This document shows positions 3,899-56,930 of a stretch of 64,000 nt of DNA, piece by piece. A program made the position numbers and the translations under genes. The notes beneath the pieces are model-generated. The model made no database searches, was not told the origin of the DNA, and saw nothing but the letters and a program-made list of their open reading frames with translations. The DNA lies in assembly GCA_002796125.1 (NCBI GenBank), contig PCWA01000109.1, forward strand, positions 1,347-65,346, read 5' to 3'. This DNA is from Candidatus Ghiorseimicrobium undicola (GTDB lineage Bacteria; Omnitrophota; Gorgyraeia; Ghiorseimicrobiales; Ghiorseimicrobiaceae). Position 1 is the first letter of the stretch. Each line of letters starts with the position of its first letter.

Positions 3899-4038
3899 TA
3901 GTGCGCTGTTAATTTAATTTTTAATAGGACAGCGCACAGAGCAATTGAGCAATAGATAATAGAACAATAGACAAGCAAAAGCTCAATTGCGGTCTATTTT
4001 CTATTGCTCTATTGTTCAAGAATTAGTTTAACAATGTA
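3899..4038. repeat. Structured ~140 bp repeat, copy A; inverted copy of 17479-17621
   Basis: Nested palindromes gtgcgctgt...acagcgcac and gcaattgagc...gctcaattgc. The reverse complement matches 17494-17621 with about 4 mismatches. Confidence 0.85.
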
Positions 4039-4059
4039 TTAGCATGATTTTTAAGTAAG

Positions 4060-7261: not shown

Positions 7262-8176
7262 TTAATTTAGGCTCTCCAGATACCGCTGGATGCAGAAAGC
7301 AGCAGTCGCCCCATCAGAACAAGCAGTAACTACTTGCCTTAATATCTTCTGGCGGCAGTCGCCGGCGGCAAATATACCTTTTTTGTTTGTCTGCATACAT
7401 TCATCGGTCAAAATATGGCCGTGTTCATCTAATTTTACTAAATCAGCCAGGAAACCGGTTGCCGGAGCCCTCCCCACATATATAAAAACCCCGCTGCAGC
7501 GTATATTTTCTTCTTTTTTTGTCTTAACATTCTTCAAGACCATCCCATCTACTTTATCTTTGCCTGATATTTTCACGACTACAGAATCCCAGACAGGCGT
7601 AATTTTATCATTACCAAGCACCCTCTCCCTCAGTATTTCCGCAGCTCTTAAAGTATCTCTTCGATGAACAAGAAAAACTTTCTCGCAGAATTTAGCCAGA
7701 TACAAGGCCTCTTCTACGGCGGTATCACCGCCGCCAATAACCGCTACCTGCTTGCCGCGGAATAAAGGCGCATCACAAGTGGCGCAATAGGAAACCCCTT
7801 TACCAATCAATAAATCTTCCCCCTCAACACCCAGGCGCTTAGGGTCAGAGCCCACCGAAATAATAATTGATTTAGATATACGCTCCGCTATATCTGTCTT
7901 TACGATCCAGCCGGATTCATCTTTCTTTATACCGCTTACTTCTTCTTGTAAAATCTCAACGCCCAGGCCCTTAACCTGTTTTTCCATATCAAGCATCAGG
8001 TCCCTGGCCAAAGGCGGCTCTTTAAAACCAGGGTAATTTTCTATGTATTCCGTAAGTAAAATCTGTCCGCCGCATGAAATTTTTTCCAAAATAAGAGTCT
8101 TTAATTTGCTTCTGCCGGCATATAACCCCGCTGTTAATCCAGCAGGGCCTGCCCCGATTATTACTACATCATACAT
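7262..8176 (-). CDS. trxB: Thioredoxin-disulfide reductase
   Basis: 304 aa; GAGPAG FAD site, CATC redox motif, NADPH GGGDTA site. Confidence 0.9.
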   Translation of the reverse strand: MYDVVIIGAGPAGLTAGLYAGRSKLKTLILEKISCGGQILLTEYIENYPGFKEPPLARDLMLDMEKQVKGLGVEILQEEVSGIKKDESGWIVKTDIAERISKSIIISVGSDPKRLGVEGEDLLIGKGVSYCATCDAPLFRGKQVAVIGGGDTAVEEALYLAKFCEKVFLVHRRDTLRAAEILRERVLGNDKITPVWDSVVVKISGKDKVDGMVLKNVKTKKEENIRCSGVFIYVGRAPATGFLADLVKLDEHGHILTDECMQTNKKGIFAAGDCRQKILRQVVTACSDGATAAFCIQRYLESLN

Positions 8177-17431: not shown

Positions 17432-17478
17432 TTCTCCTCACTTCTTTCGAAAGCAGACGATTTTTAGTTATTGATTAC

Positions 17479-17621
17479 TAGTGCACTGTAAAATTAATTC
17501 TTGAACAATAGAGCAATAGAAAATAGACCGCAATTGAGCTTTTGCTTGTCTATTGTTCTACTCTCTATTGCTCAATTGCTCTGCGCGCTGTCCTATTAAA
17601 AATTAAATTAACAGCGCACTA
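17479..17621. repeat. Structured ~140 bp repeat, copy B (inverted relative to 3899-4038)
   Basis: Terminal inverted repeat tagtgcactgt (17479-17489) / acagcgcacta (17611-17621); internal palindromes as in copy A. Confidence 0.85.
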
Positions 17622-25323: not shown

Positions 25324-25350
25324 ATTAGCACTCTTGTTATGAGAATGCTA
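25324..25350. promoter_or_regulatory. CIRCE operator (HrcA binding site)
   Basis: TTAGCACTC-N9-GAATGCTAA, one mismatch from the consensus TTAGCACTC-N9-GAGTGCTAA; 58 bp upstream of the hrcA start. A putative TTGACA-N16-TAAACT sigma-A promoter on the minus strand lies just upstream. Confidence 0.8.
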
Positions 25351-25468
25351 AAAAATTAGTTTAGCACAAATTTTTATTTTGTCAATATATAATACAGGCT
25401 GGATAATTACTCCGCTACGCGTGGCGGGATATATTAAAGACTGGTGATTTTAATCGCTAATAATGAAT

Positions 25469-28400
25469 TTAAATCTCGTTTTTTTCTAAAATAGGCATAA
25501 AGGCGTTAACGATTGCCGGGTCAAACTGTGAACCAGCGCCGTCTTTAATTATTTTAATGGCTTCATCTTTCGAATAAGCTTTACGGTATGGACGGTCAGA
25601 AATTAAAGCCTGGTAAACATCCGCTATAGCAATAATTCGCGCGCCCATCGGGATATCTTCGCCCCTTAATCCGCTGGGATAGCCGGTACCATCCCATTTT
25701 TCATGATGATACAGCATGAGCGGGATCATGCTGCGCAAAAAATGTACCGGCCGTATGATATCAACAGCGATCTGGGGGTGTTTTTTGATTTCTTCAAATT
25801 CTTCCCCTGAAAGCGGAGTCCTCTTAAGCAGGATTTTTTCGCTTATACCCACCTTGCCCAAATCATGAAGGGCCGCAGCCTGCCTTATCAAAACTATATC
25901 TTCCTTAGAAAGCATCAATGCCTTAGCAATACTATCGGCGTATTCTACGGTATTTTCCACATGCTCTCCGGTATAATGGTCTTTTAATTCTATCGTCTTG
26001 GCAAAAGCAAAAACCGCCTCCATCAAACTTTGATTAGTCTGCCGCGTAAGTTTATCCAATTTGCCCTTAAGAAAAGAAACGTCTTCTTCTACACTCTTAT
26101 CCATATAATTTTCTTTTTTATTTTTCAAAATATCTGCATGCGAATAAACCCTCCCCCCTCCGTCATATTTAGCCTTATCTAAAATCTTGTCTGCCAGCTC
26201 AACCAATTCCATGCCTTTTGCCGCCCTGTCTTCAGGATATGAAACAACCGACATACTTAATTTTAATCTTATAGAAGTATCATTATTGCCGAAATTATAC
26301 AGGGATATGGCATCCGATAGCCTTTGCGACAAATTAATAGCCGACGATACATCTATGCCGGGGCATATAATAACAAATTCTTCTCCGCCGAACCTTATAA
26401 TGATATCATAGCGCCGCACCATACGCTTAAGCTGGCGCGCAAATTGTTTCAATACCAAATCGCCAAATTCATGCCCATAGACTTTATTTATGGATTTAAA
26501 ATAATCTATATCCAGCATTATTACGGAAAGCGACTGCGTATAACGGTTAGCCCTGACAAATTCCGTCTCAATTACTTCCGCAAGGTAACGATGGTTATAT
26601 ACTCCCGTATGGTAATCTCTCAATACCAATTCATTCAGCCGCCTGCTTGATTTTATCAATTCCTTATTTATCTCTTTAAGTTTTCTTTCTGTATGTTTAC
26701 GCTCTGTTATATTAACAAATGATACCAATGTCTTGGCTAATGTCTGTTCATAGATAGGAGGAACTGACCATTTAACATAAACATCTATCTTATTACCTTT
26801 GAGCGTAAAGACAATCAATTCGCAATCAAAAACAGACTTACCCTCACCTATGGCAATCAGCTCTTCTTTAAACATGGTCAATGATTCTTCAGCCAGCGTC
26901 ATTTTCGGGTTTGAAATTAGGGTGTTTTTATCATCAGCCTCAAATAGAGTCAGCGCTGATTTATTGGCATCCAAAATCTTAACCATAGACATGCAATCAG
27001 TAATGGCATCCGGATTAGCTTCAAAATATGCGCGGAAATCAACAATCCCCTTTTTCTTTAGAAGATCTATAAATATTTTTATATTAGAGAAATCCTCCTC
27101 CAATAAAGCAACAGGAGAATCTTCGAATAAGGCATGGTAACGCCTGCTGCTTTCATGGAGCATGCCTTCTGATTTTTTTCTTTCGGATATATCTCTTATA
27201 ATGGCCAATATACTTTGCCTTTGATTAAGGACGATGTGCTTAAGGCTGATTTCCGCCCAAAACAGGCCTGCCTCTTTAGTCTTGCAGCGCCATTCAAACA
27301 CTTGTGGCTTACCGTCTATTGCTTCAGCAACAAAATTGTAAAGTTCTTTTTTGGAATAAGGCGGATAACCCAGGCTCAAATCGCAGATATCCATTTTTTT
27401 TATTTCCAGCTCAGAATAGGCGAAAATATCCAGCATCTTTTTATTAGCGTTTACTACTTTGGCGGACTTAATATCATAAATAACGATAATATCATTAGCG
27501 AAATTAAAAATATCGCTATAATTGGCCTCTGATTCACGCAAAGCTCTTTCAGCGTGTTTTCTGCGGGTAATATCCATAACCATCCCGGAGATCTCATCGT
27601 CTTCAAGAAGCGCATCAACAAGAATATGCTTGATTATTTTTGCCTCGGTTAAAATTTCCAACTCCAAGCCTTCAACCTTGCCTTTCATTTTAAGCAGCTG
27701 AATAAAAGCCTCATAATCATTTCTGCTTTTATAAAACCCGGCCATATTAAAATGCATTATTTTTTCCAAAGGCATAAAATCGAATATATCCGCCAGCGCC
27801 TTGTTCGCGTATAAAATATCTCCCTTTAAATTCGTTTTGTATATCCCGACTATGGCATTTTCGGTAAGGTCGCGGTATTTCTTTTCGGATAAATTCAGCG
27901 CCTCCTGAGCCTTCTTCTGTTTCGTTATGTCAAGGCAATATTCAATAATCTGCATAACCTTTCCTTTTTTGTCAAATATTGGATAGGCATGCACTTCAAC
28001 ATGCCTTGCCTCGCCTTTCTTATCGTAATGCACATGCTCAACCACCACCGGTTTTTTTGTCTTCTTAACTTCCTGCAATGTGCAGGGATATCCGTCTTTA
28101 AAACATGGCCGCCCGCTTTTATGTGTTATGCCGTAACAAGTAGACTTAGGGCTTAGTTCTCCAAGCTGCGCTGTGGAATTGGCTAATTTAATAGTATAAT
28201 CTTTGGCATCCACCACATAAAACGGATGAGAAAGCGATTCTATGGCACTGTATAAAAATTCCTTTTGATGAAGGATTTTATTTTCCTCCGCTTTGCGTGC
28301 CGTAATATCCTGCATTGTCTCTATTACATAAATGACCTTGCCGGATTTATCCTTCTTGGGCGTTGAGGTAAGATTGTATATCTTGCCATCGCTGCAAACT

Positions 28401-28723
28401 CCTGTTTCGGAAAAAGAAACCTTTCCTGTTTTAAAAGTTTTTATGGCCGGGCAATTATCGCAAATATTTTTCCTAGACTTAGAAAATAATAACTTATAAC
28501 AGACAGGATTAGCCTTTAATTTGACCTGGGGGAACCCCTCTTCAAAAACTTTATTAAACCAAACCAACTCCATCCGGGGATTTATTATGACAGCCCCCAT
28601 GTTTGAATCGTATAAAAGCTTACCCACCATTTTGCCTATTGATTTTTCCCTATTCATAAACATGGCTATGCCGGTTTTATGACTTTTAAAAACCTTTGTT
28701 TTTTTCTCTAAATTTTTACCCAT
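25469..28723 (-). CDS. Multidomain c-di-GMP signalling protein: several PAS domains + GGDEF + HD-GYP
   Basis: 1084 aa; GGEEF (IIRFGGEEFVIICPG) and HD-GYP signature HHEKWDGTGYP; Cys-cluster motifs in the N-terminal PAS domains. Confidence 0.85.
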   Translation of the reverse strand: MGKNLEKKTKVFKSHKTGIAMFMNREKSIGKMVGKLLYDSNMGAVIINPRMELVWFNKVFEEGFPQVKLKANPVCYKLLFSKSRKNICDNCPAIKTFKTGKVSFSETGVCSDGKIYNLTSTPKKDKSGKVIYVIETMQDITARKAEENKILHQKEFLYSAIESLSHPFYVVDAKDYTIKLANSTAQLGELSPKSTCYGITHKSGRPCFKDGYPCTLQEVKKTKKPVVVEHVHYDKKGEARHVEVHAYPIFDKKGKVMQIIEYCLDITKQKKAQEALNLSEKKYRDLTENAIVGIYKTNLKGDILYANKALADIFDFMPLEKIMHFNMAGFYKSRNDYEAFIQLLKMKGKVEGLELEILTEAKIIKHILVDALLEDDEISGMVMDITRRKHAERALRESEANYSDIFNFANDIIVIYDIKSAKVVNANKKMLDIFAYSELEIKKMDICDLSLGYPPYSKKELYNFVAEAIDGKPQVFEWRCKTKEAGLFWAEISLKHIVLNQRQSILAIIRDISERKKSEGMLHESSRRYHALFEDSPVALLEEDFSNIKIFIDLLKKKGIVDFRAYFEANPDAITDCMSMVKILDANKSALTLFEADDKNTLISNPKMTLAEESLTMFKEELIAIGEGKSVFDCELIVFTLKGNKIDVYVKWSVPPIYEQTLAKTLVSFVNITERKHTERKLKEINKELIKSSRRLNELVLRDYHTGVYNHRYLAEVIETEFVRANRYTQSLSVIMLDIDYFKSINKVYGHEFGDLVLKQFARQLKRMVRRYDIIIRFGGEEFVIICPGIDVSSAINLSQRLSDAISLYNFGNNDTSIRLKLSMSVVSYPEDRAAKGMELVELADKILDKAKYDGGGRVYSHADILKNKKENYMDKSVEEDVSFLKGKLDKLTRQTNQSLMEAVFAFAKTIELKDHYTGEHVENTVEYADSIAKALMLSKEDIVLIRQAAALHDLGKVGISEKILLKRTPLSGEEFEEIKKHPQIAVDIIRPVHFLRSMIPLMLYHHEKWDGTGYPSGLRGEDIPMGARIIAIADVYQALISDRPYRKAYSKDEAIKIIKDGAGSQFDPAIVNAFMPILEKNEI

Positions 28724-28747
28724 TTTTTTAATAGCGGAATCAAAAAC

Positions 28748-28784
28748 AAAGGCAGTTTTCTAACTTGAATAGAAAACTGCCTTT
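28748..28784 (-). terminator. Leader hairpin (intrinsic-terminator-like) in the 5' UTR of the PAS-GGDEF-HD-GYP gene
   Basis: Perfect 14-bp stem aaaggcagttttct / agaaaactgccttt with a 9-nt loop, followed on the minus strand by TGTTTTTG and then the ATG about 35 nt later. Confidence 0.5.
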
Positions 28785-28865
28785 TATGTATTTAAATTAT
28801 TTTGGTACCACGCTATGCCTATGATTAATATGCGCATCATGGCTCTTTTCTGTGGCTGGAATATA

Positions 28866-28894
28866 AGTATAACATATCAAATCAGATTTGTCAA
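28866..28894 (-). promoter_or_regulatory. Putative sigma-70 promoter for the PAS-GGDEF-HD-GYP gene
   Basis: Minus strand TTGACA (28889-28894) - 17 nt - TATACT (28866-28871); the -35 lies 17 bp from the IS left end. Confidence 0.5.
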
Positions 28895-28910
28895 TTGGTG
28901 ATGTAGCGGA

Positions 28911-30276
28911 GGTAGTATACTCAATTGTGTGTAAATTAGCTTTACAGCATTAATAAAAAGGCGTATCTTTCTGTTTGGAACATTATTAACCCAGGCCGGA
29001 CACGCCAATGTCTGCCTAACCAGAAAGGATACGCCATGCAATACGTTGTTACAGAACATAGTTTACGGCGCCGATGGGCAAGAGTCAATGAGTTTTTTCA
29101 ATGCACGCAGGAGAAAGACTTTTGGGTTGACATTAATCAGTACCTGCGCCGTATGGTTAAGGGCGTTATTGAAGTCAGCCTCGATGAGGAAATGATCCAA
29201 TACATGCAGACACAGCCTTATCAAAGAACTAATAAATCAAGCCGCTTAGATTACCGTAACGGATATTATCATCGCAATCTTGATACTACTTTCGGCCCGG
29301 TTGAACAAATTGCCATTCCCCGCTCAAGGCAGGGATTATTCAGGCCATCTGTTTTTGAACGTTATCAAAGACGGCAACAATCCGTTAATGATGTCGTCTG
29401 TAATGTATTCCTGCGCGGGATATCTACCAGGGATGTCGCGGAAGCATTAAAACCGCTGCTCAACACCACTCTTTCGGCTTCGGCAGTATCCAGAATTACC
29501 AAACGCTTGAACCCCATGGTTAAAGAATTCCATCAACGTAAACTGCTCGATGAATACCAGTTCTTGTTTTTAGACGGCATTACTATCTCGGTCAAAGGCT
29601 CGCTTAAGGCAAAGAAAATACTTGTCCTTGTGGCTTATGGAATAACCGTCTTCGGCAAAAAGGAACTTGTCGCCTTTAGAATCGCCAATGCCGAGTCTGC
29701 TTCTGCCTGTGAAAGCTTCCTTAATGATTTATTTAAGCGCGGGCTTGAAGGCAAAAACCTCAAGATGATTATTACCGACGGCTCCAAAGGCTTTATAGCC
29801 GCGATTGAACTTGTCTATCCGCATGCCCTGCATCAACGCTGCTGGGTGCATAAACTGCGTAATGCCACCAAGCGCCTTAAAAAAACGGATATCAAACCTT
29901 TTAAGGCGGAGGCGCGCAAGATTTATAACGCCTCTACTCATAGAAAGGCCGTAGCCGCCTTCAAAACATTAAGGAATCATTGGAAAGGCATCGCGCCTGA
30001 GGCGGTTAATTGCCTTGAGCGCGACATAGACGAGCTTTTAGCCTTCTTGACTATTCCTATTAAAGAACAATACCGTGCTTTTATCCGCCGGCAGATTCGC
30101 ACTACCAACATCATCGAGCGCTCATTCCGCGAAGTCAGGCGTAGGACTAGGCCGATGGGTTGTTTTACTAATTACGACAGCGTATCACGTATTATTTACG
30201 CGATTTTTAACCGTCTAAACTCCAAATGGCAAGAGAAGCCTTTAGAACAATTTACACAATTTATTTGACATTACCT
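28911..30276 (+). mobile_element. IS256-family insertion sequence (1366 bp) with 8-bp target site duplication GTAGCGGA
   Basis: Direct repeats gtagcgga at 28903-28910 and 30277-30284. Imperfect terminal IRs ggtagtatactcaattgtgtgtaaatt / (reverse complement) aggtaatgtcaaataaattgtgtaaatt. Encodes a mutator/IS256-type transposase. Confidence 0.85.
29036..30268 (+). CDS. IS256 family transposase
   Basis: 410 aa; Transposase_mut-type core (FLFLDGITISVKG...VLVAYGITVFGKKE), typical length. Confidence 0.85.
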   Translation: MQYVVTEHSLRRRWARVNEFFQCTQEKDFWVDINQYLRRMVKGVIEVSLDEEMIQYMQTQPYQRTNKSSRLDYRNGYYHRNLDTTFGPVEQIAIPRSRQGLFRPSVFERYQRRQQSVNDVVCNVFLRGISTRDVAEALKPLLNTTLSASAVSRITKRLNPMVKEFHQRKLLDEYQFLFLDGITISVKGSLKAKKILVLVAYGITVFGKKELVAFRIANAESASACESFLNDLFKRGLEGKNLKMIITDGSKGFIAAIELVYPHALHQRCWVHKLRNATKRLKKTDIKPFKAEARKIYNASTHRKAVAAFKTLRNHWKGIAPEAVNCLERDIDELLAFLTIPIKEQYRAFIRRQIRTTNIIERSFREVRRRTRPMGCFTNYDSVSRIIYAIFNRLNSKWQEKPLEQFTQFI

Positions 30277-31559
30277 GTAGCGGACACAATTGACTGATAA
30301 GTAATTTTCAGTAATTTTTTAAGCGTATTCATGGAAATATTTAGCGCCGGCATAAGCACAATTACATTACCTAACGGCCTTAGTATTGCCCCCCGTTTTC
30401 TTGCTTCGTTTACAACCTTTAGGCCTATTCTTTCTTCCCAATGATAAGGCGTACCGGCTTTTTTATTCTTTATTAATTCAATACCCACCATAAAACCCAA
30501 TTGCCGCACCTCTTTTACGTTCTTAAGTCCTTGAAAAACCTTAAGTTGAATTTTTAGATAGTTAATTTTTGGCTTGAGCTTCTGTAAAGTTTTCTCTTTT
30601 TTGAATATCTTAAGATTTGCCAAAGCGGCACTGCAAGCCAAAGGATTGGCAGTATAACTATGCCCATGAAAAAATGTCTTTTTATGGCCGTAATATCCTA
30701 AAAAAGCCCTGTATATCTTATCGCTGGTAATGGTTGCGGCTAAAGGCAAGTAGCCCCCCGTAATGCCTTTACCTAAGCACATCACATCCGGCCTAACCTT
30801 CTCATGCTCACAAGCAAACATTTTTCCGGTCCTGCCGAATCCAGTAGCCACTTCATCAGCTATAAACAATATATCATAACGGCTGCAAAGCAGTCTTGCC
30901 TTTTTTAAAAAACCGCTAGGACAAAGCAGCATCCCGCCTGCCCCTTGTATCAATGGTTCAATAATCAAAGCGGCGATTTTTTTATGATGCCTTTTTAAGA
31001 GGGTTTCCAATTTTTTTTCACAAAAACCAGCCATGTAAGAGCCAAACAATAGCGGCTTGTATATATTATGAAACAAATTAATCCCTCCCACGCTCACGGA
31101 ACCTACGGTGTCACCGTGATATGAATTATTAAAATATATAAATTTTGTTTTACCGGCCATACCCTTATGGCGCCAATATTGAAAACACATTTTAAGCGCT
31201 ATCTCAACGCTGGTCGAGCCATTATCAGAATAGAATACCTTATTTAAGCCAGGAGGCACTATGCCGATTAATTGCCTGGCAAGTAAAATAGCTTTCTCAT
31301 GGCTTAAGCCTAAAAAAGTTGAATGCGCGATTTTCCCAAGCTGCTTTTTTACTGCCGAATCTATTTCTTTGTTTCTGTGACCATGCACATTAACCCATAA
31401 AGAAGAAACGCCGTCTATGAACCATCGGCCATGCATATCTTTTAAATACACCCCCCTGCCTTCCTTGACAATCAAAGGATCTTCCCTCAACCAATCGCGC
31501 ATCTGGGTAAATGGGTGCCAAACATATTTTTTATCCAGTTGAGTTAAATTTTTACGCAT
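30261..31559 (-). CDS. bioA: Adenosylmethionine-8-amino-7-oxononanoate aminotransferase
   Basis: 432 aa class-III aminotransferase at the end of the bio operon. The last 4 codons and the stop (GNVK*) are supplied by the IS right end. Confidence 0.85.
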   Translation of the reverse strand: MRKNLTQLDKKYVWHPFTQMRDWLREDPLIVKEGRGVYLKDMHGRWFIDGVSSLWVNVHGHRNKEIDSAVKKQLGKIAHSTFLGLSHEKAILLARQLIGIVPPGLNKVFYSDNGSTSVEIALKMCFQYWRHKGMAGKTKFIYFNNSYHGDTVGSVSVGGINLFHNIYKPLLFGSYMAGFCEKKLETLLKRHHKKIAALIIEPLIQGAGGMLLCPSGFLKKARLLCSRYDILFIADEVATGFGRTGKMFACEHEKVRPDVMCLGKGITGGYLPLAATITSDKIYRAFLGYYGHKKTFFHGHSYTANPLACSAALANLKIFKKEKTLQKLKPKINYLKIQLKVFQGLKNVKEVRQLGFMVGIELIKNKKAGTPYHWEERIGLKVVNEARKRGAILRPLGNVIVLMPALNISMNTLKKLLKITYQSIVSATGNVK

Positions 31560-50844: not shown

Positions 50845-51213
50845 CTAAACTACTTCTGGGGCCAGCGAAATAATCTTCATGAAATCTTTCTCTCTCAACT
50901 CCCTGGCGACCGGCCCGAAAACTCTTGTCCCCTTAGGATTACGCTGATTATCAATGATTACCGCAGCATTACGGTCAAAACGTACTGTAGACCCGTCCGG
51001 CCTGCGTATGGGCGCCTTTGTCCTAACTACCACCGCTTTGGCAACCTCTCCTTTTTTTACGCCTGCATCAGGAGCAGATTCTTTTACATTTACGACTATC
51101 ACATCGCCAATTTCGGCGGTACGCCGGTTTTTTCTGCCGAGAACATTAATAAAGGAAACCTTCTTTGCTCCCGTATTATCCGCTACATCCAATATTGACC
51201 TTATTTGTATCAT
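50845..51213 (-). CDS. rplN: 50S ribosomal protein L14
   Basis: 122 aa. Confidence 0.95.
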
Positions 51214-51278
51214 TTTCTACTCTTATCCTTTACTTATTGAGCTTTATACAACTAAAAGCAAAAATCAATAGTTACTGA

Positions 51279-51554
51279 TTATTTCAAAACCTCTATCAAT
51301 CTCCAGTACTTATCTTTAGAAAGAGGCCTCGTCTCCATTATTCTTACGCGATCACCGATTTTAGCGGTATTATTTTCATCATGTACTTTAAACTTATTAT
51401 ATTTTTTTATTATTTTTTTATAGGCGGGGTGACGGGCAGCCATCTCAACCCTTACCACGATAGTTTTCTGCATTTTATCGCTGGTAACATAACCTATGCG
51501 CTCTTTCCTTTTTGCTCTAACATTTGTCATTTTATATTCTTCCTTTTTTTGCAC
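51279..51554 (-). CDS. rpsQ: 30S ribosomal protein S17
   Basis: 91 aa. Confidence 0.95.
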
Positions 51555-51724
51555 AAAATAGTTTCAATCCTGGCAATATCTTTTTTAAATTTAGAGAATA
51601 AGTGCGGCTTATCTACCCTACCGAATTTACGCTGATAATTCAATTTATGCAGCTCTTCTTTACAGGATGTTTTTTTCTGAATAAGTTCATCTGCGCTCAA
51701 ATTAGTATAATCTTCTTTTTTCAC
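51527..51724 (-). CDS. rpmC: 50S ribosomal protein L29
   Basis: 65 aa; overlaps rpsQ. Confidence 0.9.
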
Positions 51725-51799
51725 TAAATCTTCCCTTCCTGTCGTTATATTTTTAACACCCGCCTCGTATTTACGGCAGGCGAGAGGCAGGCGGTAAAA

Positions 51800-52219
51800 T
51801 TAATAGCTATGGCCGTGCTTAATTAATTTTGTTTTTACAGGCAGTTTAAAAGACGCCAGCCTAAAAGCCTCTTTAGCAAGGGCTTCAGGAACACCTCCCA
51901 GCTCAAAAAGAACCTGACCTCTTTTTACTACAGCTACCCAATGATCTAATTCACCCTTGCCTTTTCCCATGCGTGTTTCCGCGGGTTTTTTCGTCACGGA
52001 CTTATGCGGAAAAATCCTTATCCAAAGCTTCCCGCCGCGGCGAAGCTGCCTGGCGATTATAACGCGCACCGCCTCAATGTGCATACTTTTAATCCAGCCG
52101 TTATCCAAGGCTTTTAATCCGAACTCGCCGAAGTTAACCTTATTTGAACGCAAAGAAATGCCTTTACGCCTTCCTCTTTGTAATTTTCTATACTTTACTC
52201 TTTTGGGCATCAAAGCCAT
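51800..52219 (-). CDS. rplP: 50S ribosomal protein L16
   Basis: 139 aa. Confidence 0.95.
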
Positions 52220-52234
52220 AGCTTACCTACCTAT

Positions 52235-52969
52235 TTATTTTACTGATTTTGCTTCTCTAAACTTAAAATTTTCCTGCTTGGTCTCTATATCCTCTCGAAG
52301 ATTCATAGACCTACCTATAATGTCGCCTTTATAAATCCATACTTTTATGCCTATAAGGCCATATGTCGTGTAGGCCTCGCAAAAACCATAATCTATGTCT
52401 GCCCTCAGAGTTTGAAGCGGGATTTTTCCTTCCTTATATTTCTCGCGACGCGATATCTCTACCCCTCCCAACCTCCCGGCACAGGCAACTTTTATTCCTT
52501 TTGCCCCCGCGCTCATCGCCTGCTCTATTGCCCGCTTTACCGCTCTTCGATAAGCTACGCGCTTCTCTATCTGGAAAGCTATATTCTGCGCTACAATCTG
52601 GGCATCAATGGCGGGCCGCTTGACCTCCACTATATCAATAGCTAAATCTTTCTTGATTAGTTTATACAAATCCTGCTTTAATCTATCGATATCTGCTCCG
52701 TGCCTACCGATAATTACACCTGGACGCGCCGTATATATTCTAATACGCAGACTTCCGGTGCTAACCCTTTCGATTATTATTTTTGAAAGAGAAGCCTGGC
52801 GAAATTTAACGCGTATATAACTGCGTATCCTGGCATCTTCAACAATAAATCGGGCAAAGTCGCCTTTAGGAGCGAACCATCTACTGTTCCAGTCTTTAAT
52901 AAAGCCTATTCTTGATATTAGAGGATGAACTTTGTGTCCCAAAATTGCCTCCTTGATTAATCCTGACAA
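52235..52969 (-). CDS. rpsC: 30S ribosomal protein S3
   Basis: KH plus S3-C domains; the true start is probably the TTG 8 codons in (GHKVHP), with an AAGGAGG SD upstream. Confidence 0.95.
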   Translation of the reverse strand: MSGLIKEAILGHKVHPLISRIGFIKDWNSRWFAPKGDFARFIVEDARIRSYIRVKFRQASLSKIIIERVSTGSLRIRIYTARPGVIIGRHGADIDRLKQDLYKLIKKDLAIDIVEVKRPAIDAQIVAQNIAFQIEKRVAYRRAVKRAIEQAMSAGAKGIKVACAGRLGGVEISRREKYKEGKIPLQTLRADIDYGFCEAYTTYGLIGIKVWIYKGDIIGRSMNLREDIETKQENFKFREAKSVK

Positions 52970-53023
52970 GGCGTAACGAAAATTCCGTCTTGTGATATTC
53001 CTTACAATTTATGTAATTAACGC

Positions 53024-53359
53024 TTATTTATGTTTTAAATCCAATTCTATCTTAAGATGAACCGTGCGCTTCAAAATCGGCGCAGCCCTGCCAAACGCCG
53101 CTGCCCGGTATCGCTTCCATCTTGCGCCTTCATCAGCGCTGATACGGGATATATAGAGCTGTTGAGGTTCTATGCCTTTAACTTTAGCGTTAGCAATAGC
53201 AGAACGAAGCGTTTTAAGCACGTAATCCCGCGGACGCTTATTTAAATTAGGCAATAAGCCCAACGCATAAGAAACATCTTCGCCTCTAATTAAATCAATG
53301 ACTTCGCGTGTTTTTCTTGGTGACAGCCTTAAAAATTTGTTTTCTGCTCTTGATATCAT
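53024..53359 (-). CDS. rplV: 50S ribosomal protein L22
   Basis: 111 aa. Confidence 0.95.
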   Translation of the reverse strand: MISRAENKFLRLSPRKTREVIDLIRGEDVSYALGLLPNLNKRPRDYVLKTLRSAIANAKVKGIEPQQLYISRISADEGARWKRYRAAAFGRAAPILKRTVHLKIELDLKHK

Positions 53360-53483
53360 ATTAATGAGCCCACAACTTACGGAGTGAAGCTAACGTAAGT
53401 TGTTTGGGCGAATTAATCCCGCAGCCTATCAGGGTAAATTTCTGCGAAATTTACCCTGATGTTTAGGCAAGGGATATTGATCC
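53360..53483. repeat. Structured intergenic repeat family, copy 4, abutting the rplV start codon (inside the S10 operon)
   Basis: ttaatgagccc-[hairpin acaacttacg/cgtaagttgt]-ttgggcgaattaatcccg-[perfect hairpin cagggtaaattt/aaatttaccctg]-gtttaggcaagggat. Confidence 0.8.
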
Positions 53484-53494
53484 TTTAAATTATA

Positions 53495-53782
53495 TTAAGT
53501 TTTATCGGCTGCTTTCTTTGCTTTTACGCCGCCGTGTTTTCTGAATATGCGCGTTGGCGCAAACTCACCTAATTTATGCCCGACCATATTTTCGGTAATA
53601 AATACAGGCACGTGTTTTCTTCCGTCATAAACGGCAAATGTAAAACCTACGAAATCAGGAGTAACCACCGAGCGCCTGGACCATGTTTTAATTGCCTGGC
53701 GGCTTCCGGTTTTTCGTGCCCTATCTACCTTTTTTAATAACTTTTCATCTATAAATGGTCCTTTTTTTATCGACCGCGCCAT
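53495..53782 (-). CDS. rpsS: 30S ribosomal protein S19
   Basis: 95 aa. Confidence 0.95.
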
Positions 53783-53805
53783 ATCCCTCTCCGATGTTCA
53801 AAAAT

Positions 53806-54639
53806 TTATTTTCTTCTGTTCACTATATATTTATCAGAATATTTAACCTTCTTCCGGGTTCGGAAGCCTTTTGTGGGTTTCCCCCAAGGCGTTACCGGAT
53901 GAGGATTACCCTGCCCTGATTTACCCTCGCCTCCGCCGTGCGGATGATCGACAGGATTCATAACAACGCCTCTGACATGCGGCTTTCTCCCTTTCCAATT
54001 ATTTCTACCCGCTTTACCGTCTTTCTCCGCTTCATGACTTACATTACCGACTTGCCCTATGGTTGCCGAACAATCCAAGCGCACCAACCTGACTTCTCCG
54101 GAAGGAAGCCGAACATGCGCAAAATCTCCTTCCTTAGCCATTATCTGGGCGGACGTTCCTGCGCCCCTGACTATCTTGCCCCCCTGGCCTTTAACCAGTT
54201 CAATATTATGCATTAATGTTCCTGAAGGAATATTACGCAGAGGCATACAATTACCTGATTTAATATCAATCTCCGCCGTATCTGAGCTTATAACAGCATC
54301 TCCCACATTTAAATCCACAGGAGCTAGAATATAACGCTTTTCTTTATCTTCATATTCCAAAAGAGCAATCCTGCTTGAACGATTAGGGTCATATTCAATA
54401 GCAATAACCCTCGCAGGTATATTTTTCTTATCGCGTTTGAAATCTATGACACGATACATCCGTTTATGTCCGCCGCCGCGAAACCGCACGGTAATACGCC
54501 CATAACAATTCCTGCCGCCGCTTTTCTTTAAAGGCCTAAGAAGAGATTTTTCAGGCGTATTTTTAGTAATCTCCTCAAAGGTGGGACGCTTCATAAATCT
54601 CATACCGGGTGTTGTTGGATTATATTTTCTTATAGCCAT
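53806..54639 (-). CDS. rplB: 50S ribosomal protein L2
   Basis: 277 aa. Confidence 0.97.
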
Positions 54640-54680
54640 AGTTTAAGTTTTAATTTTGATTTTCTTTGATTTTTTATTTT

Positions 54681-54959
54681 TTATGTTGTGTCTATCTTAT
54701 GACCTTCTTTTAAGCTGACTATCGCCTTTTTCCAGTCTGAAGTATATCCAGTCTGATAGCGTAATCTTTTTGCCTTCCCCTTAGAAATCAACGTATTTAC
54801 ACAGTCAACTTTAACCTTATAAATTGATTCAACCGCCTTTTTTATCTGTATTTTATTCGCTCTTTTATTAACCCAAAATACATACCTTCCAAAAGGCTCA
54901 TCAAAGTTTGTGCTTTTTTCGGTGCGAATTATCGTCTTAACAACGTCGTAATTATCCAT
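54681..54959 (-). CDS. rplW: 50S ribosomal protein L23
   Basis: 92 aa. Confidence 0.9.
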   Translation of the reverse strand: MDNYDVVKTIIRTEKSTNFDEPFGRYVFWVNKRANKIQIKKAVESIYKVKVDCVNTLISKGKAKRLRYQTGYTSDWKKAIVSLKEGHKIDTT

Positions 54960-54964
54960 ATTTT

Positions 54965-55666
54965 CTAAAGGCTGTTTTTTATTCTGCTGGTTATTTTTTT
55001 TAGCGCCTCTTTAGTCATCAATAATTTCTTATGGCACAACACATCATAAGCAGTTACGTCTTCCGGCCTGATTATATTTAAATTCGCGATATTCCCCATG
55101 GAACGCCGTACTCCGGCGCTGTTATCAAAAACGCCTAATGTCGCGCTACTAAGGCGTGTTCCGGAAATAATCCCCGGTAAATGCGATAATAATTTTATCG
55201 CGTCTTTTGTTTTCTCAAGCTTAGCCAAACTATCAAGCAGTATAACATCCTGATTGTTAAGGCGGCTGTTAATGCTGGATTTCAAAGCTGAGATTCTTAT
55301 TTTCTGCGGTATGGTATAAGAAAAATCGCGCGGCCTGGGACCAAAAGTAACGCCTCCATGCTTAAAAAGCGGCGAACGGGAAGAACCTGCTCTCGCGCGC
55401 CCGGTACCTTTCTGCCTCCAAGGCTTTTTCCCGCCTCCGGACACTTCACCGCGGGTTTTCGTAGAAGCGGTACCCGTACGTAAATTCGCCTGATAACAAA
55501 TCACTGCCTGATGCAGGATATCCTTGTTGACTCCACCGTCAAAAATATGCTTATCCAAAACCAAATCCTCCAGCTTCCTGCCGTCGCTGCCGTAAACAGA
55601 CAACTTGAAATCTTGAGGATCTTTGGTTGCCAAATTATTTTTTTTGTTAGATTTAATATCGGTCAT
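54965..55666 (-). CDS. rplD: 50S ribosomal protein L4
   Basis: 233 aa. Confidence 0.95.
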   Translation of the reverse strand: MTDIKSNKKNNLATKDPQDFKLSVYGSDGRKLEDLVLDKHIFDGGVNKDILHQAVICYQANLRTGTASTKTRGEVSGGGKKPWRQKGTGRARAGSSRSPLFKHGGVTFGPRPRDFSYTIPQKIRISALKSSINSRLNNQDVILLDSLAKLEKTKDAIKLLSHLPGIISGTRLSSATLGVFDNSAGVRRSMGNIANLNIIRPEDVTAYDVLCHKKLLMTKEALKKITSRIKNSL

Positions 55667-55674
55667 TTAGATTC

Positions 55675-56376
55675 CTATTTCTTTTTTATATTTTTCTTAC
55701 CCTTTGGCTTACTTTGTTTTTTCTCTGCTTCTCTTGCGGCAGCTTCAGCTTTTAGGGCATTTATATCACCGCGTTTTTTTGCTTTTCGGATTATTACATA
55801 ACTATTTTTATGGCCTGCTACAGAACCTTTAACGGATAGCATATTATTTTCACTGTCTACGCTGACCACTCTGAGATTTTGCACGGTAATGCGGCTATTT
55901 CCCATATGCCCGGGCATGTGCGTATTTTTAAATACGCGCGAAGGGTCGGAACTAGCACCTATAGAACCGACTCTGCGATGAGACATGGAACCATGGCTCT
56001 TCGGTCCGCCACTCCAATGCCAGCGTTTGACGCCGCCCTGAAACCCTTTACCTATAGAAACGCCTGTAACATCCACAAAATCGCCTTCTTTGAATATATC
56101 CACCTTTATCGCCTGGCCGATATTGTATTCTTGCGGTTTATCAACTTTTATTTCCTTAATAAAAGCCTGCGGCTCAACGGATATCTTTTTGAAAACACCG
56201 GACTGTGGACGCGCCAGCCGCCTATCAGCAATCTTACCGAAACCAACCTGTATACTATTGGCTTTTTTCTGAATTACAAAACACGGCCCTGCCTCAATAA
56301 CCGTAACCGGAACAAAACGCCCGTCTTCATTAAATTTATGCGTCATCCCTAATTTTCTACCTAATAAACCGCTCAT
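55675..56376 (-). CDS. rplC: 50S ribosomal protein L3 (with Lys-rich C-terminal tail)
   Basis: 233 aa. Confidence 0.95.
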   Translation of the reverse strand: MSGLLGRKLGMTHKFNEDGRFVPVTVIEAGPCFVIQKKANSIQVGFGKIADRRLARPQSGVFKKISVEPQAFIKEIKVDKPQEYNIGQAIKVDIFKEGDFVDVTGVSIGKGFQGGVKRWHWSGGPKSHGSMSHRRVGSIGASSDPSRVFKNTHMPGHMGNSRITVQNLRVVSVDSENNMLSVKGSVAGHKNSYVIIRKAKKRGDINALKAEAAAREAEKKQSKPKGKKNIKKK

Positions 56377-56467
56377 AGTGATTTTAAAATTTACAATCGG
56401 ATTTTTCTATAGAGCAGGCAGAATTAATATTTTTAAACGCCGGCTTTTGAATCCAATTGTATAATTA

Positions 56468-56767
56468 TTATTTTATTTCTACCGCTACTCCAGCAGGTAG
56501 GTTTAGCTTACGCAGGGCATCAACCGTCTTAGCCGTAGGATCAAGCAACTCTAAAAGACGACGATGCGTAAAAAGGCCAAATTGTTCCCGTGATTTTTTA
56601 TCAATAACCGTAGCCCTTAACACTGTGTATATCTCTTTTTTAGTCGGCAGCGGAATCGGTCCTGAAACACGCGCACCAGTCCTTTTCGCTGTCTCTACGA
56701 TTTCCTGTGTTGATTGATCAAGCAATCTGTGATCGTAAGCTTTTAATTTTATACGTATCTTCTGCAT
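56468..56767 (-). CDS. rpsJ: 30S ribosomal protein S10
   Basis: Likely start ATG at 56767 ([12 protein letters not shown] matches the S10 N-terminus); the ORF track begins at an upstream in-frame GTG (56779). Confidence 0.95.
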
Positions 56768-56930
56768 TTTAATGAGCACATAAGTTACGGAAGCGAAGCT
56801 GACGTAATTTATAAGTGCGAATTAATCCCGAAGCCTGTGCAGTAAATTTCGAAGAAATTTACAAACGTTTAGGCGAGGGATACATTTACAAACTGCTGAG
56901 CCCATCCGCCTGCGGCGAAATATGGGCGAA
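56768..56930. repeat. Structured intergenic repeat family, copy 5 (with 3' extension module), between the tuf stop and the rpsJ start
   Basis: tttaatgagcac-[hairpin ataagttacg/cgtaatttat with a G-T pair]-gtgcgaattaatcccg-[cagtaaattt/aaatttac]-gtttaggcgagggatacattt...gagcccatccgcctgcggcgaaatatgggcgaatt. Confidence 0.8.

Follow-up and report, generated by a model that had tools for sequence, protein, structure and literature searches.

Intrinsic terminators placed within operons or leaders share a simple arrangement, in which a GC-rich stem followed by a U-tract stands between a source of transcription and a promoterless gene. The Escherichia coli rpsU-dnaG-rpoD operon contains such an internal terminator, T1, which lowers expression of the distal genes. 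A promoter, a leader and a terminator with its U-tract also precede a c-di-GMP gene in the c-di-GMP-I (GEMM-I, RF01051) and c-di-GMP-II (RF01786) riboswitches. In the leader-peptide attenuators of the trpL and pyrBI type, a short open reading frame ends at the foot of the terminator, where a stalled ribosome would mask the 5′ arm. The Omnitrophota are an uncultured phylum of very small cells, and we know of no experimental work on gene regulation in them; a search of the literature on Omnitrophota and c-di-GMP found nothing relevant.

Here we describe a hairpin and U-tract that precede a gene for a c-di-GMP turnover enzyme in Omnitrophota. The element is present in no RNA family library, yet in kind it belongs with the conventional leader or intra-operon terminators. 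Like intra-operon terminators, it lies inside an otherwise co-transcribed pair of genes, rpoD and the PAS gene discussed below, in 11 relatives. It differs from them in having a dedicated strong promoter ~75 nt upstream, and in a stem (GGCAGC...) that many species have conserved and that is linked to a single gene family. On balance, and with only modest assurance, we favour the reading that the hairpin and U-tract act as an intrinsic terminator and form a conserved 'gate' on the 5′ edge of the Omnitrophota PAS-GGDEF-HD-GYP genes.

The gene encodes a protein of 1084 residues with the domain order PAS-PAS-PAS-GGDEF-HD-GYP (25469..28723, minus strand; Pfam scan, with HD-GYP as HD_5). It lies in the window, by which we mean the whole stretch of 64,000 nucleotides that was analysed. 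Its ATG at 28723 is not preceded by a Shine-Dalgarno sequence; this choice of start codon is supported by the alignment of its N-terminus, MGKNLEKKTKVFKSH, with that of the homologue in locus L012, MKKNMKKIEKQLSLH. On the same strand, a sigma-70 promoter (28866..28894) consists of a −35 box TTGACA (28894-28889), a 17-nt spacer and an extended −10 element TGtTATACT, in which the hexamer TATACT (28871-28866) is preceded by TGn. Its score of 11/12 bears out the near-consensus minus-strand promoter, TTGACA-17-TATACT, that an earlier note on this DNA had proposed. Promoter matches of at least 11/12 occur at three sites on either strand of the 64-kb window (128 kb scanned) against ~1.5 expected, and the leader promoter alone among the three has both the TG and a 17-nt spacer. 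No other promoter is visible for the PAS-GGDEF-HD-GYP gene. Transcription is predicted to start at ~28859 (minus strand), which would give a 5′ UTR of ~136 nt, in agreement with the ~135 nt stated earlier.

The first ~75 nt of the predicted transcript (28785..28859, minus strand) begin with CCAGCC and contain a small hairpin, P1, in the predicted fold (GCCAUGAU...AUCAUAGGC; 28843-28817, minus strand). They also hold most of a small open reading frame of 18 codons, MMRILIIGIAWYQNNLNT (28784..28840, minus strand), whose TAA stop codon (28786-28784) touches the base of the main hairpin. This intrinsic-terminator-type hairpin (28748..28784, minus strand) has a perfect 15-bp stem, AAAGGCAGUUUUCUA / UAGAAAACUGCCUUU, with arms at 28784-28770 and 28762-28748 and a 7-nt loop. 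It is followed by the U-tract GUUUUUG (28741..28747, minus strand), which together with the stem-closing UUU reads UUUGUUUUUG and directly follows the GC core GGCAG/CUGCC. The isolated hairpin folds at −20.2 kcal/mol, and a fold of the 163-nt leader has z = −4.2 relative to shuffles. With a stable, GC-containing stem-loop and a U-rich tract on the transcribed strand, the hairpin has the features that define an intrinsic terminator, and no other terminator-like site on the coding strand of the window comes near it in strength. R1, a covariance model of the hairpin, gives it 40 bits on the gene strand and its palindromic mirror on the opposite strand 37.3 bits; the next distinct site reaches 17.7 bits. 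A perfect stem-loop with a U-tract ahead of the ATG had thus been recognised correctly in the earlier note, but the stem has 15 bp and not 14, and it lies 24 nt, not ~35 nt, from the start codon. The possibility of a repeated or mobile hairpin element was ruled out, as each locus has only one copy and no further copy occurs in the window.

Species-representative genomes and metagenomes were scanned with the alignment of the protein, which gave ~160 loci, nearly all of them from Omnitrophota; once redundancy was removed, the gene start could be resolved in 78 loci. A search with the full PAS protein contributed one useful further relative, P0122 (locus L177), whereas the contig of P0002 (L175) stops before the leader. 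A hairpin of the GGCAGC or GGCAAC type with a T-tract precedes homologous PAS-GGDEF-HD-GYP genes in 28/78 Omnitrophota loci, and three more hairpin loci (L176, L177 and L118) were found separately. The stems are visibly homologous to one another (AAGGCAGC, AAGGCAAC or AAGGUAAUCC with a matching 3′ arm) and unlike other terminators of the same genomes; the 9 nt after the stem contain 6.0 T on average. In 907 kb of related loci, R1 finds almost exclusively the leaders of PAS genes. The strict order of promoter, hairpin and open reading frame occurs eight times in ~905 kb, and five of these eight occurrences belong to the PAS-gene family. Since the hairpin is absent from 50 of the 78 homologous loci, the element is dispensable. 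What these counts describe is one c-di-GMP turnover enzyme family that, in Omnitrophota, stands systematically behind a conserved terminator.

In an alignment of the outer helix, 92% of cells are paired and nine of ten pairs show changes on both sides. None of 500 shuffles paired as well and slid controls were 36-60% paired, with the proviso that the presence of a hairpin was the basis on which these loci were chosen and the percentage paired is therefore partly built in. The family helix contains 27 G-U pairs vs 3 A-C, which indicates that the RNA of the gene strand is the functional form, and not a DNA palindrome or an antisense element. Compensatory changes and this strand asymmetry of G-U pairs together rule out a DNA operator, that is, a palindrome bound by a protein.

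The position of the hairpin relative to the gene is also constrained. Its end lies 8-53 nt from the ATG in 25 of the 28 loci (85-120 nt in L015, L019 and L110). A space of 8-53 nt is too short for a promoter, so that the gene would be reached by read-through. The regular distance from the ATG could equally be that of a post-transcriptional 5′-UTR element which is not a terminator, either a stabiliser of the mRNA or a standby or S1-binding platform for starts without a Shine-Dalgarno sequence. Many start codons of the family indeed lack this sequence and are preceded only by the U-tract, and the predicted transcript of L035 carries the hairpin right at its 5′ end. A GC-rich stem with an immediate run of 6-9 U is, however, the signature of a terminator and is not needed by a stabiliser. 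Moreover, most loci have 40-80 nt between the 5′ end and the hairpin, and in 11 loci the hairpin occupies the place where a terminator of rpoD is expected. We consider such a 5′-UTR element distinctly unlikely.

Two kinds of upstream context can be distinguished. A sigma-70 promoter, often with the sequence ATATGtTATAMT, is found 45-86 nt upstream of the hairpin in 17-19 loci. In 11 loci the hairpin follows 20-55 nt after the stop codon of an rpoD-like gene (...RHPSRSRRLRTFMDMTLAHQREY*), with no promoter in between. Fourteen other loci have a space of only 2-24 nt between rpoD and the PAS gene and no hairpin, and the comparison of the two groups fits the insertion of a terminator into a co-transcribed pair. 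The gene upstream is co-directional in 26/26 hairpin loci, against 33/45 hairpin-free loci.

The PAS-GGDEF-HD-GYP gene directly follows an rpoD-like sigma-70 gene in 25 of the 78 related loci, with the hairpin (e.g. L096, L102, L114, L120 and L143) or free of it (e.g. L025, L026, L029, L032, L033, L065 and L108). That the two genes adjoin in many Omnitrophota suggests ancestral co-transcription of the c-di-GMP enzyme with the housekeeping sigma factor.

The loci closest to the window have the first kind of context. L012, L014 and L176 share the gene order bioB, bioF, an unannotated gene, bioC, bioD, bioA and the PAS-GGDEF-HD-GYP gene, and in L014 and L177, as in the window, hrcA-grpE-dnaK come after the PAS gene. 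All four loci (L012, L014, L176 and L177) contain a promoter, a leader of 59-85 nt, the hairpin with its U-tract, and an ATG 21-40 nt further on. Their promoters read TTGACT-17-TATAAT, TTGAAA-17-TGtTATAAT, TTGACA-17-TGtTAAACT and TTGACA-17-TGtTATACT; the hexamers of L177 are those of the window, and comparable promoters are found in L012, L014, L176, L020 and others. The layout of promoter, leader, terminator hairpin and ATG that had been described for the window is therefore real and recurs in homologous loci; the concern that orthologues might lack the hairpin is removed by these four loci and by ~25 others. A possible remnant of the gene occurs in L013 (6137-6400), where bioA is followed by TTGACT-17-TATAAT, 8 nt, a 66-aa open reading frame with PAS-like sequence and an unrelated UDP-glucose dehydrogenase gene; this frame looks like what is left of a PAS-GGDEF-HD-GYP gene and has no hairpin.

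In the window, the bio operon and the leader are now separated by an insertion sequence of the IS256 family (28911..30275, plus strand; 1365 bp). It carries a single DDE transposase of 410 aa (open reading frame 29036-30268, plus strand; Pfam Transposase_mut PF00872, E=1.8e-88), imperfect terminal inverted repeats (GGTAGTATAC... / GGTAATGTCA...) and a 9-bp target-site duplication, TGTAGCGGA (left copy 28902..28910, right copy 30276-30284). A Mutator-type DDE transposase, terminal inverted repeats and a duplication of 8-9 bp are the hallmarks of the IS256 family, which the element resembles further in its many identical copies. Its ends were set by aligning the flanks of 10 other copies in unrelated contexts. 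The element appears active, because the identical transposase protein is found on at least 10 other metagenome contigs in unrelated contexts. One contig matches the window with 100% identity and breaks off 140 nt into the insertion sequence, as would be expected of an assembler with k=141 at a repeat.

The left end of the insertion sequence is 16 bp upstream of the −35 box, and the promoter and leader therefore lie outside it. The earlier note had considered that the hairpin might belong to a divergent element; the divergent neighbour is this insertion sequence, which ends at 28911 and is separate from the leader. It does not supply the promoter either. A hybrid promoter brought in by the element was rejected because both hexamers are outside the element, and because the hexamers are identical in L177, where the ~145 nt upstream of the promoter show no trace of this insertion sequence.

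The insertion has affected the end of bioA, the gene for adenosylmethionine-8-amino-7-oxononanoate transaminase (30261..31559, minus strand), the last codons of which are replaced by the insertion sequence. BioA of the window ends with ...SIVSAT + GNVK*, its relatives with ...ESAT* and ...SVTSP*. Removal of the element and one copy of the duplication, which leaves the empty site (...CAATTGGTGATGTAGCGGACACAATTG...), restores the bioA frame; this frame then crosses the promoter and has its stop codon at 28799-28797, with 12 nt left to the hairpin. The nearest relatives (67-72% identity) have a BioA that ends earlier, and the extra 30 codons are not conserved. The leader hairpin is the first terminator after the bio operon, and the insertion sequence now lies between the two. 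The insertion has cut the bio operon off from the leader terminator and has spared the promoter and leader. The window is in this respect a clean example of how an IS256-type insertion uncouples an operon from its terminator while sparing a neighbouring promoter.

The stop codon of bioA that relatives keep is lost in the window (28880-28901), where TCACCAATTGACA replaces the TCACCTTGA of L014 (7279-7293), and the −35 box overlaps the spot of this lost stop codon. Without the insertion sequence, BioA would have a non-conserved tail of 34 residues that extends 30 residues past the end of L014 BioA and is read through the promoter and leader.

These relationships bear on the proposal that the hairpin is nothing but the terminator of the upstream bio operon, or elsewhere of rpoD, and that the promoter-like site is irrelevant or arose by chance in the former 3′ end of bioA. 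The restored bioA frame that runs through the promoter and stops just before the hairpin would be in line with it. So would the lack of any other terminator after bioA in the window, L012 or L014, the occurrence of the hairpin only behind co-directional upstream genes, and its place right after rpoD in 11 loci. Yet BioA of the relatives ends at least 80 nt before their promoters, and the 30-codon tail of the window is unconserved. Near-consensus promoters recur in 17-19 independent loci with differing upstream genes, and chance would very rarely put one there (~1.5 expected per 128 kb). The stems of other terminators in these genomes are unrelated, and the PAS gene would be left without any promoter. 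We therefore hold this proposal to be quite improbable. Its narrower form, in which the hairpin is the bioA terminator only and the promoter is former coding sequence, was rejected as a full account, because BioA of relatives stops earlier and their promoters still lie upstream of the hairpin.

Beyond the hairpin, conservation of the leader is confined to a few close relatives. The leader of the window is detectably similar only to those of L176, L014 and L177 (z 2.4-6.0). Its 5′ end, CCAGCC, is common to the window, L014 and L020, with the variants CCAGTC in L176 and CTGGCC in L177, and P1 is retained in L176 with two compensatory pairs. As judged from sequence, the similarity of the four closest leaders implies some lineage-specific constraint beyond the hairpin, and nothing that amounts to an aptamer.

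A strong promoter and a strong terminator form a complete transcription unit, and the unit might encode an independent trans-acting small RNA of ~115 nt (75-90 nt in relatives), with the PAS gene reached by incidental read-through. Such a transcript would have the usual shape of a small RNA, in which an A/U-rich linker joins a 5′ hairpin to a terminator, and the conserved 5′ end would suit it also. Against it stand the tie of the element to one gene family, with R1 matches almost only in PAS-gene leaders, the lack of conservation of the transcribed pre-hairpin part beyond the nearest relatives, the 11 loci that have no promoter, and the fact that no other promoter is visible for the gene. An independent small RNA is in our view unlikely, if the least so of the alternatives discussed here.

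The layout of the leader is that of an expression platform, and the earlier note had interpreted it as a riboswitch or attenuator platform whose ligand or mechanism would differ from that of the known c-di-GMP riboswitches. On this account, formation of the terminator would depend on an aptamer or antiterminator within the leader. At gathering scores, Rfam gave no match in the whole window and, in nine related loci, none except a truncated tRNA match far from the leader (L039). Matches in the 1-kb region at E≤10, and in the leaders of relatives at E≤10 or E≤1, were at chance level. No c-di-GMP riboswitch, of type I or II, was found even at E≤10, in accordance with the earlier failure to recognise a GEMM-I or GEMM-II motif. 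The region before the hairpin varies from 5 to 80 nt across 17-19 leaders, is not conserved in sequence, and cannot be aligned beyond four relatives. In the five closest leaders RNAalifold recovers the terminator only, with no consensus structure upstream. L035 leaves no room for an aptamer, as its hairpin begins ~5 nt past the predicted transcription start, and in the 11 loci behind rpoD the leader is missing altogether, the end of rpoD taking its place.

Complementarity between the leader and the terminator 5′ arm, the antiterminator check that had been suggested, was assessed in 17 leaders against a null of dinucleotide shuffles. It yields no family-wide signal (mean z −0.01). The leader of the window alone stands out: its nt 8-19, CAGAAAAGAGCC, pair with GGCAGUUUUCU of the terminator 5′ arm (−11.4 kcal/mol, z=−2.7). 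In the modelled fold P1 could mask the segment CAGAAAAGAGCC, which would produce a classical three-part attenuator layout. This candidate antiterminator, the compensatory pairs of P1 in L176 and the fact that the leaders of the window, L014, L176 and L177 can be aligned count in favour of a riboswitch or alternative-structure attenuator. The pairing of the window is, however, not seen in L014 or L176. The window leader resembles c-di-GMP riboswitches in layout and differs from them in having neither an aptamer nor conserved sequence or structure before the hairpin. With no conserved aptamer, no family-wide antiterminator, no significant enrichment of open reading frames and no Rfam match, the interpretation as a riboswitch or attenuator platform is not upheld, and we judge it very unlikely. 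The locus is a caution that a textbook 'expression platform' beside a signalling gene does not imply a riboswitch.

The short open reading frame invites comparison with trpL and pyrBI, since it ends at the foot of the terminator in such a way that a stalled ribosome would mask the 5′ arm. Its N-terminus resembles those of the leader frames in L014 and L176, but the frame is interrupted by a stop codon in L177. Open reading frames that reach the hairpin are present in 11/19 leaders, compared with 8.75 ± 1.9 in shuffles (P=0.18). In contrast to leader-peptide attenuators, the frame of the window appears not to be conserved, frames that reach the hairpin are not significantly commoner than in shuffled leaders, and there is no alternative pairing scheme. 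We regard the 18-codon frame MMRILIIGIAWYQNNLNT as probably fortuitous. Its start, MMRILII..., recalls the Ibs toxins, and a small hydrophobic toxin of this kind was also considered; it was rejected, as only ~9 residues are hydrophobic, the peptides of relatives are polar and L177 lacks the open reading frame.

If the hairpin is a terminator, as we favour, the sequence arrangement suggests the following course of events. Polymerase that starts at the strong promoter (28894-28866) would meet the terminator 24 nt before the ATG, and, before the insertion sequence arrived, polymerase from the bio operon would have crossed the same terminator. Most transcripts would end at the hairpin and yield a terminated leader RNA of ~115 nt, whereas read-through transcripts alone would encode the c-di-GMP enzyme. 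The element would thereby both end upstream transcription, from the bio operon or rpoD, and hold expression of the c-di-GMP enzyme down, with read-through that we infer to be leaky and mostly constitutive.

A strong promoter ahead of an unconditional terminator, an arrangement that recurs in many species, looks wasteful, and this hints at regulation that has escaped detection. One could envisage a regulated attenuator specific to this family, in which a trans-acting factor, such as an RNA-binding antiterminator or a c-di-GMP-responsive protein, reads the GGCA stem or the leader and sets the level of read-through; we give this extension a small chance. Were it true, it would amount to feedback control of a c-di-GMP synthase/hydrolase in Omnitrophota, and the leader RNA of ~115 nt released by termination might in addition serve as a small RNA. 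Regulated read-through of any kind would make the locus a compact model of how a terminator can be controlled in the absence of an aptamer.

Several further features were observed. Downstream of the PAS gene in the window, hrcA-grpE-dnaK-dnaJ follow immediately, and L014 and L177 share this order of PAS gene and hrcA operon. In the window the operon is preceded by a CIRCE operator with one mismatch, TTAGCACTC-N9-GAGAATGCTAA (25325-25351), just upstream of which lies a sigma-70 promoter, TTGACA...TAAACT (~25385-25357, minus strand).

A leader with a riboswitch-like layout was noticed in two of the related loci, L041 (~7450-7615) and L059 (~7580-7765), ahead of a gene resembling O-acetylhomoserine sulfhydrylase (MSKIDAKLKVESLALHGG...). 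It comprises a promoter, TTGACA-16-TAAAAT or TATAAT, and a GC-rich hairpin with a U-tract (GGCCCGTGC...GCGCGGGTT). The L041 leader has no Rfam match at E≤0.01, and it is possible that the two represent an uncatalogued sulfur or methionine leader.

The window as a whole has 41% G+C and an extreme gene-strand bias, ~50 of 54 open reading frames of at least 150 aa being on the minus strand, and hairpins of the intrinsic-terminator type are very scarce in it (1-64000). It contains an inverted repeat of 144 nt whose arms (3899-4042 and 17478-17621) are 94% complementary and 13.4 kb apart. A family of 45-nt direct repeats at 45659-56836 has four copies, with 62-100% identity to the reference copy and a spacing of ~3.4-4.3 kb; these copies probably lie within paralogous genes.
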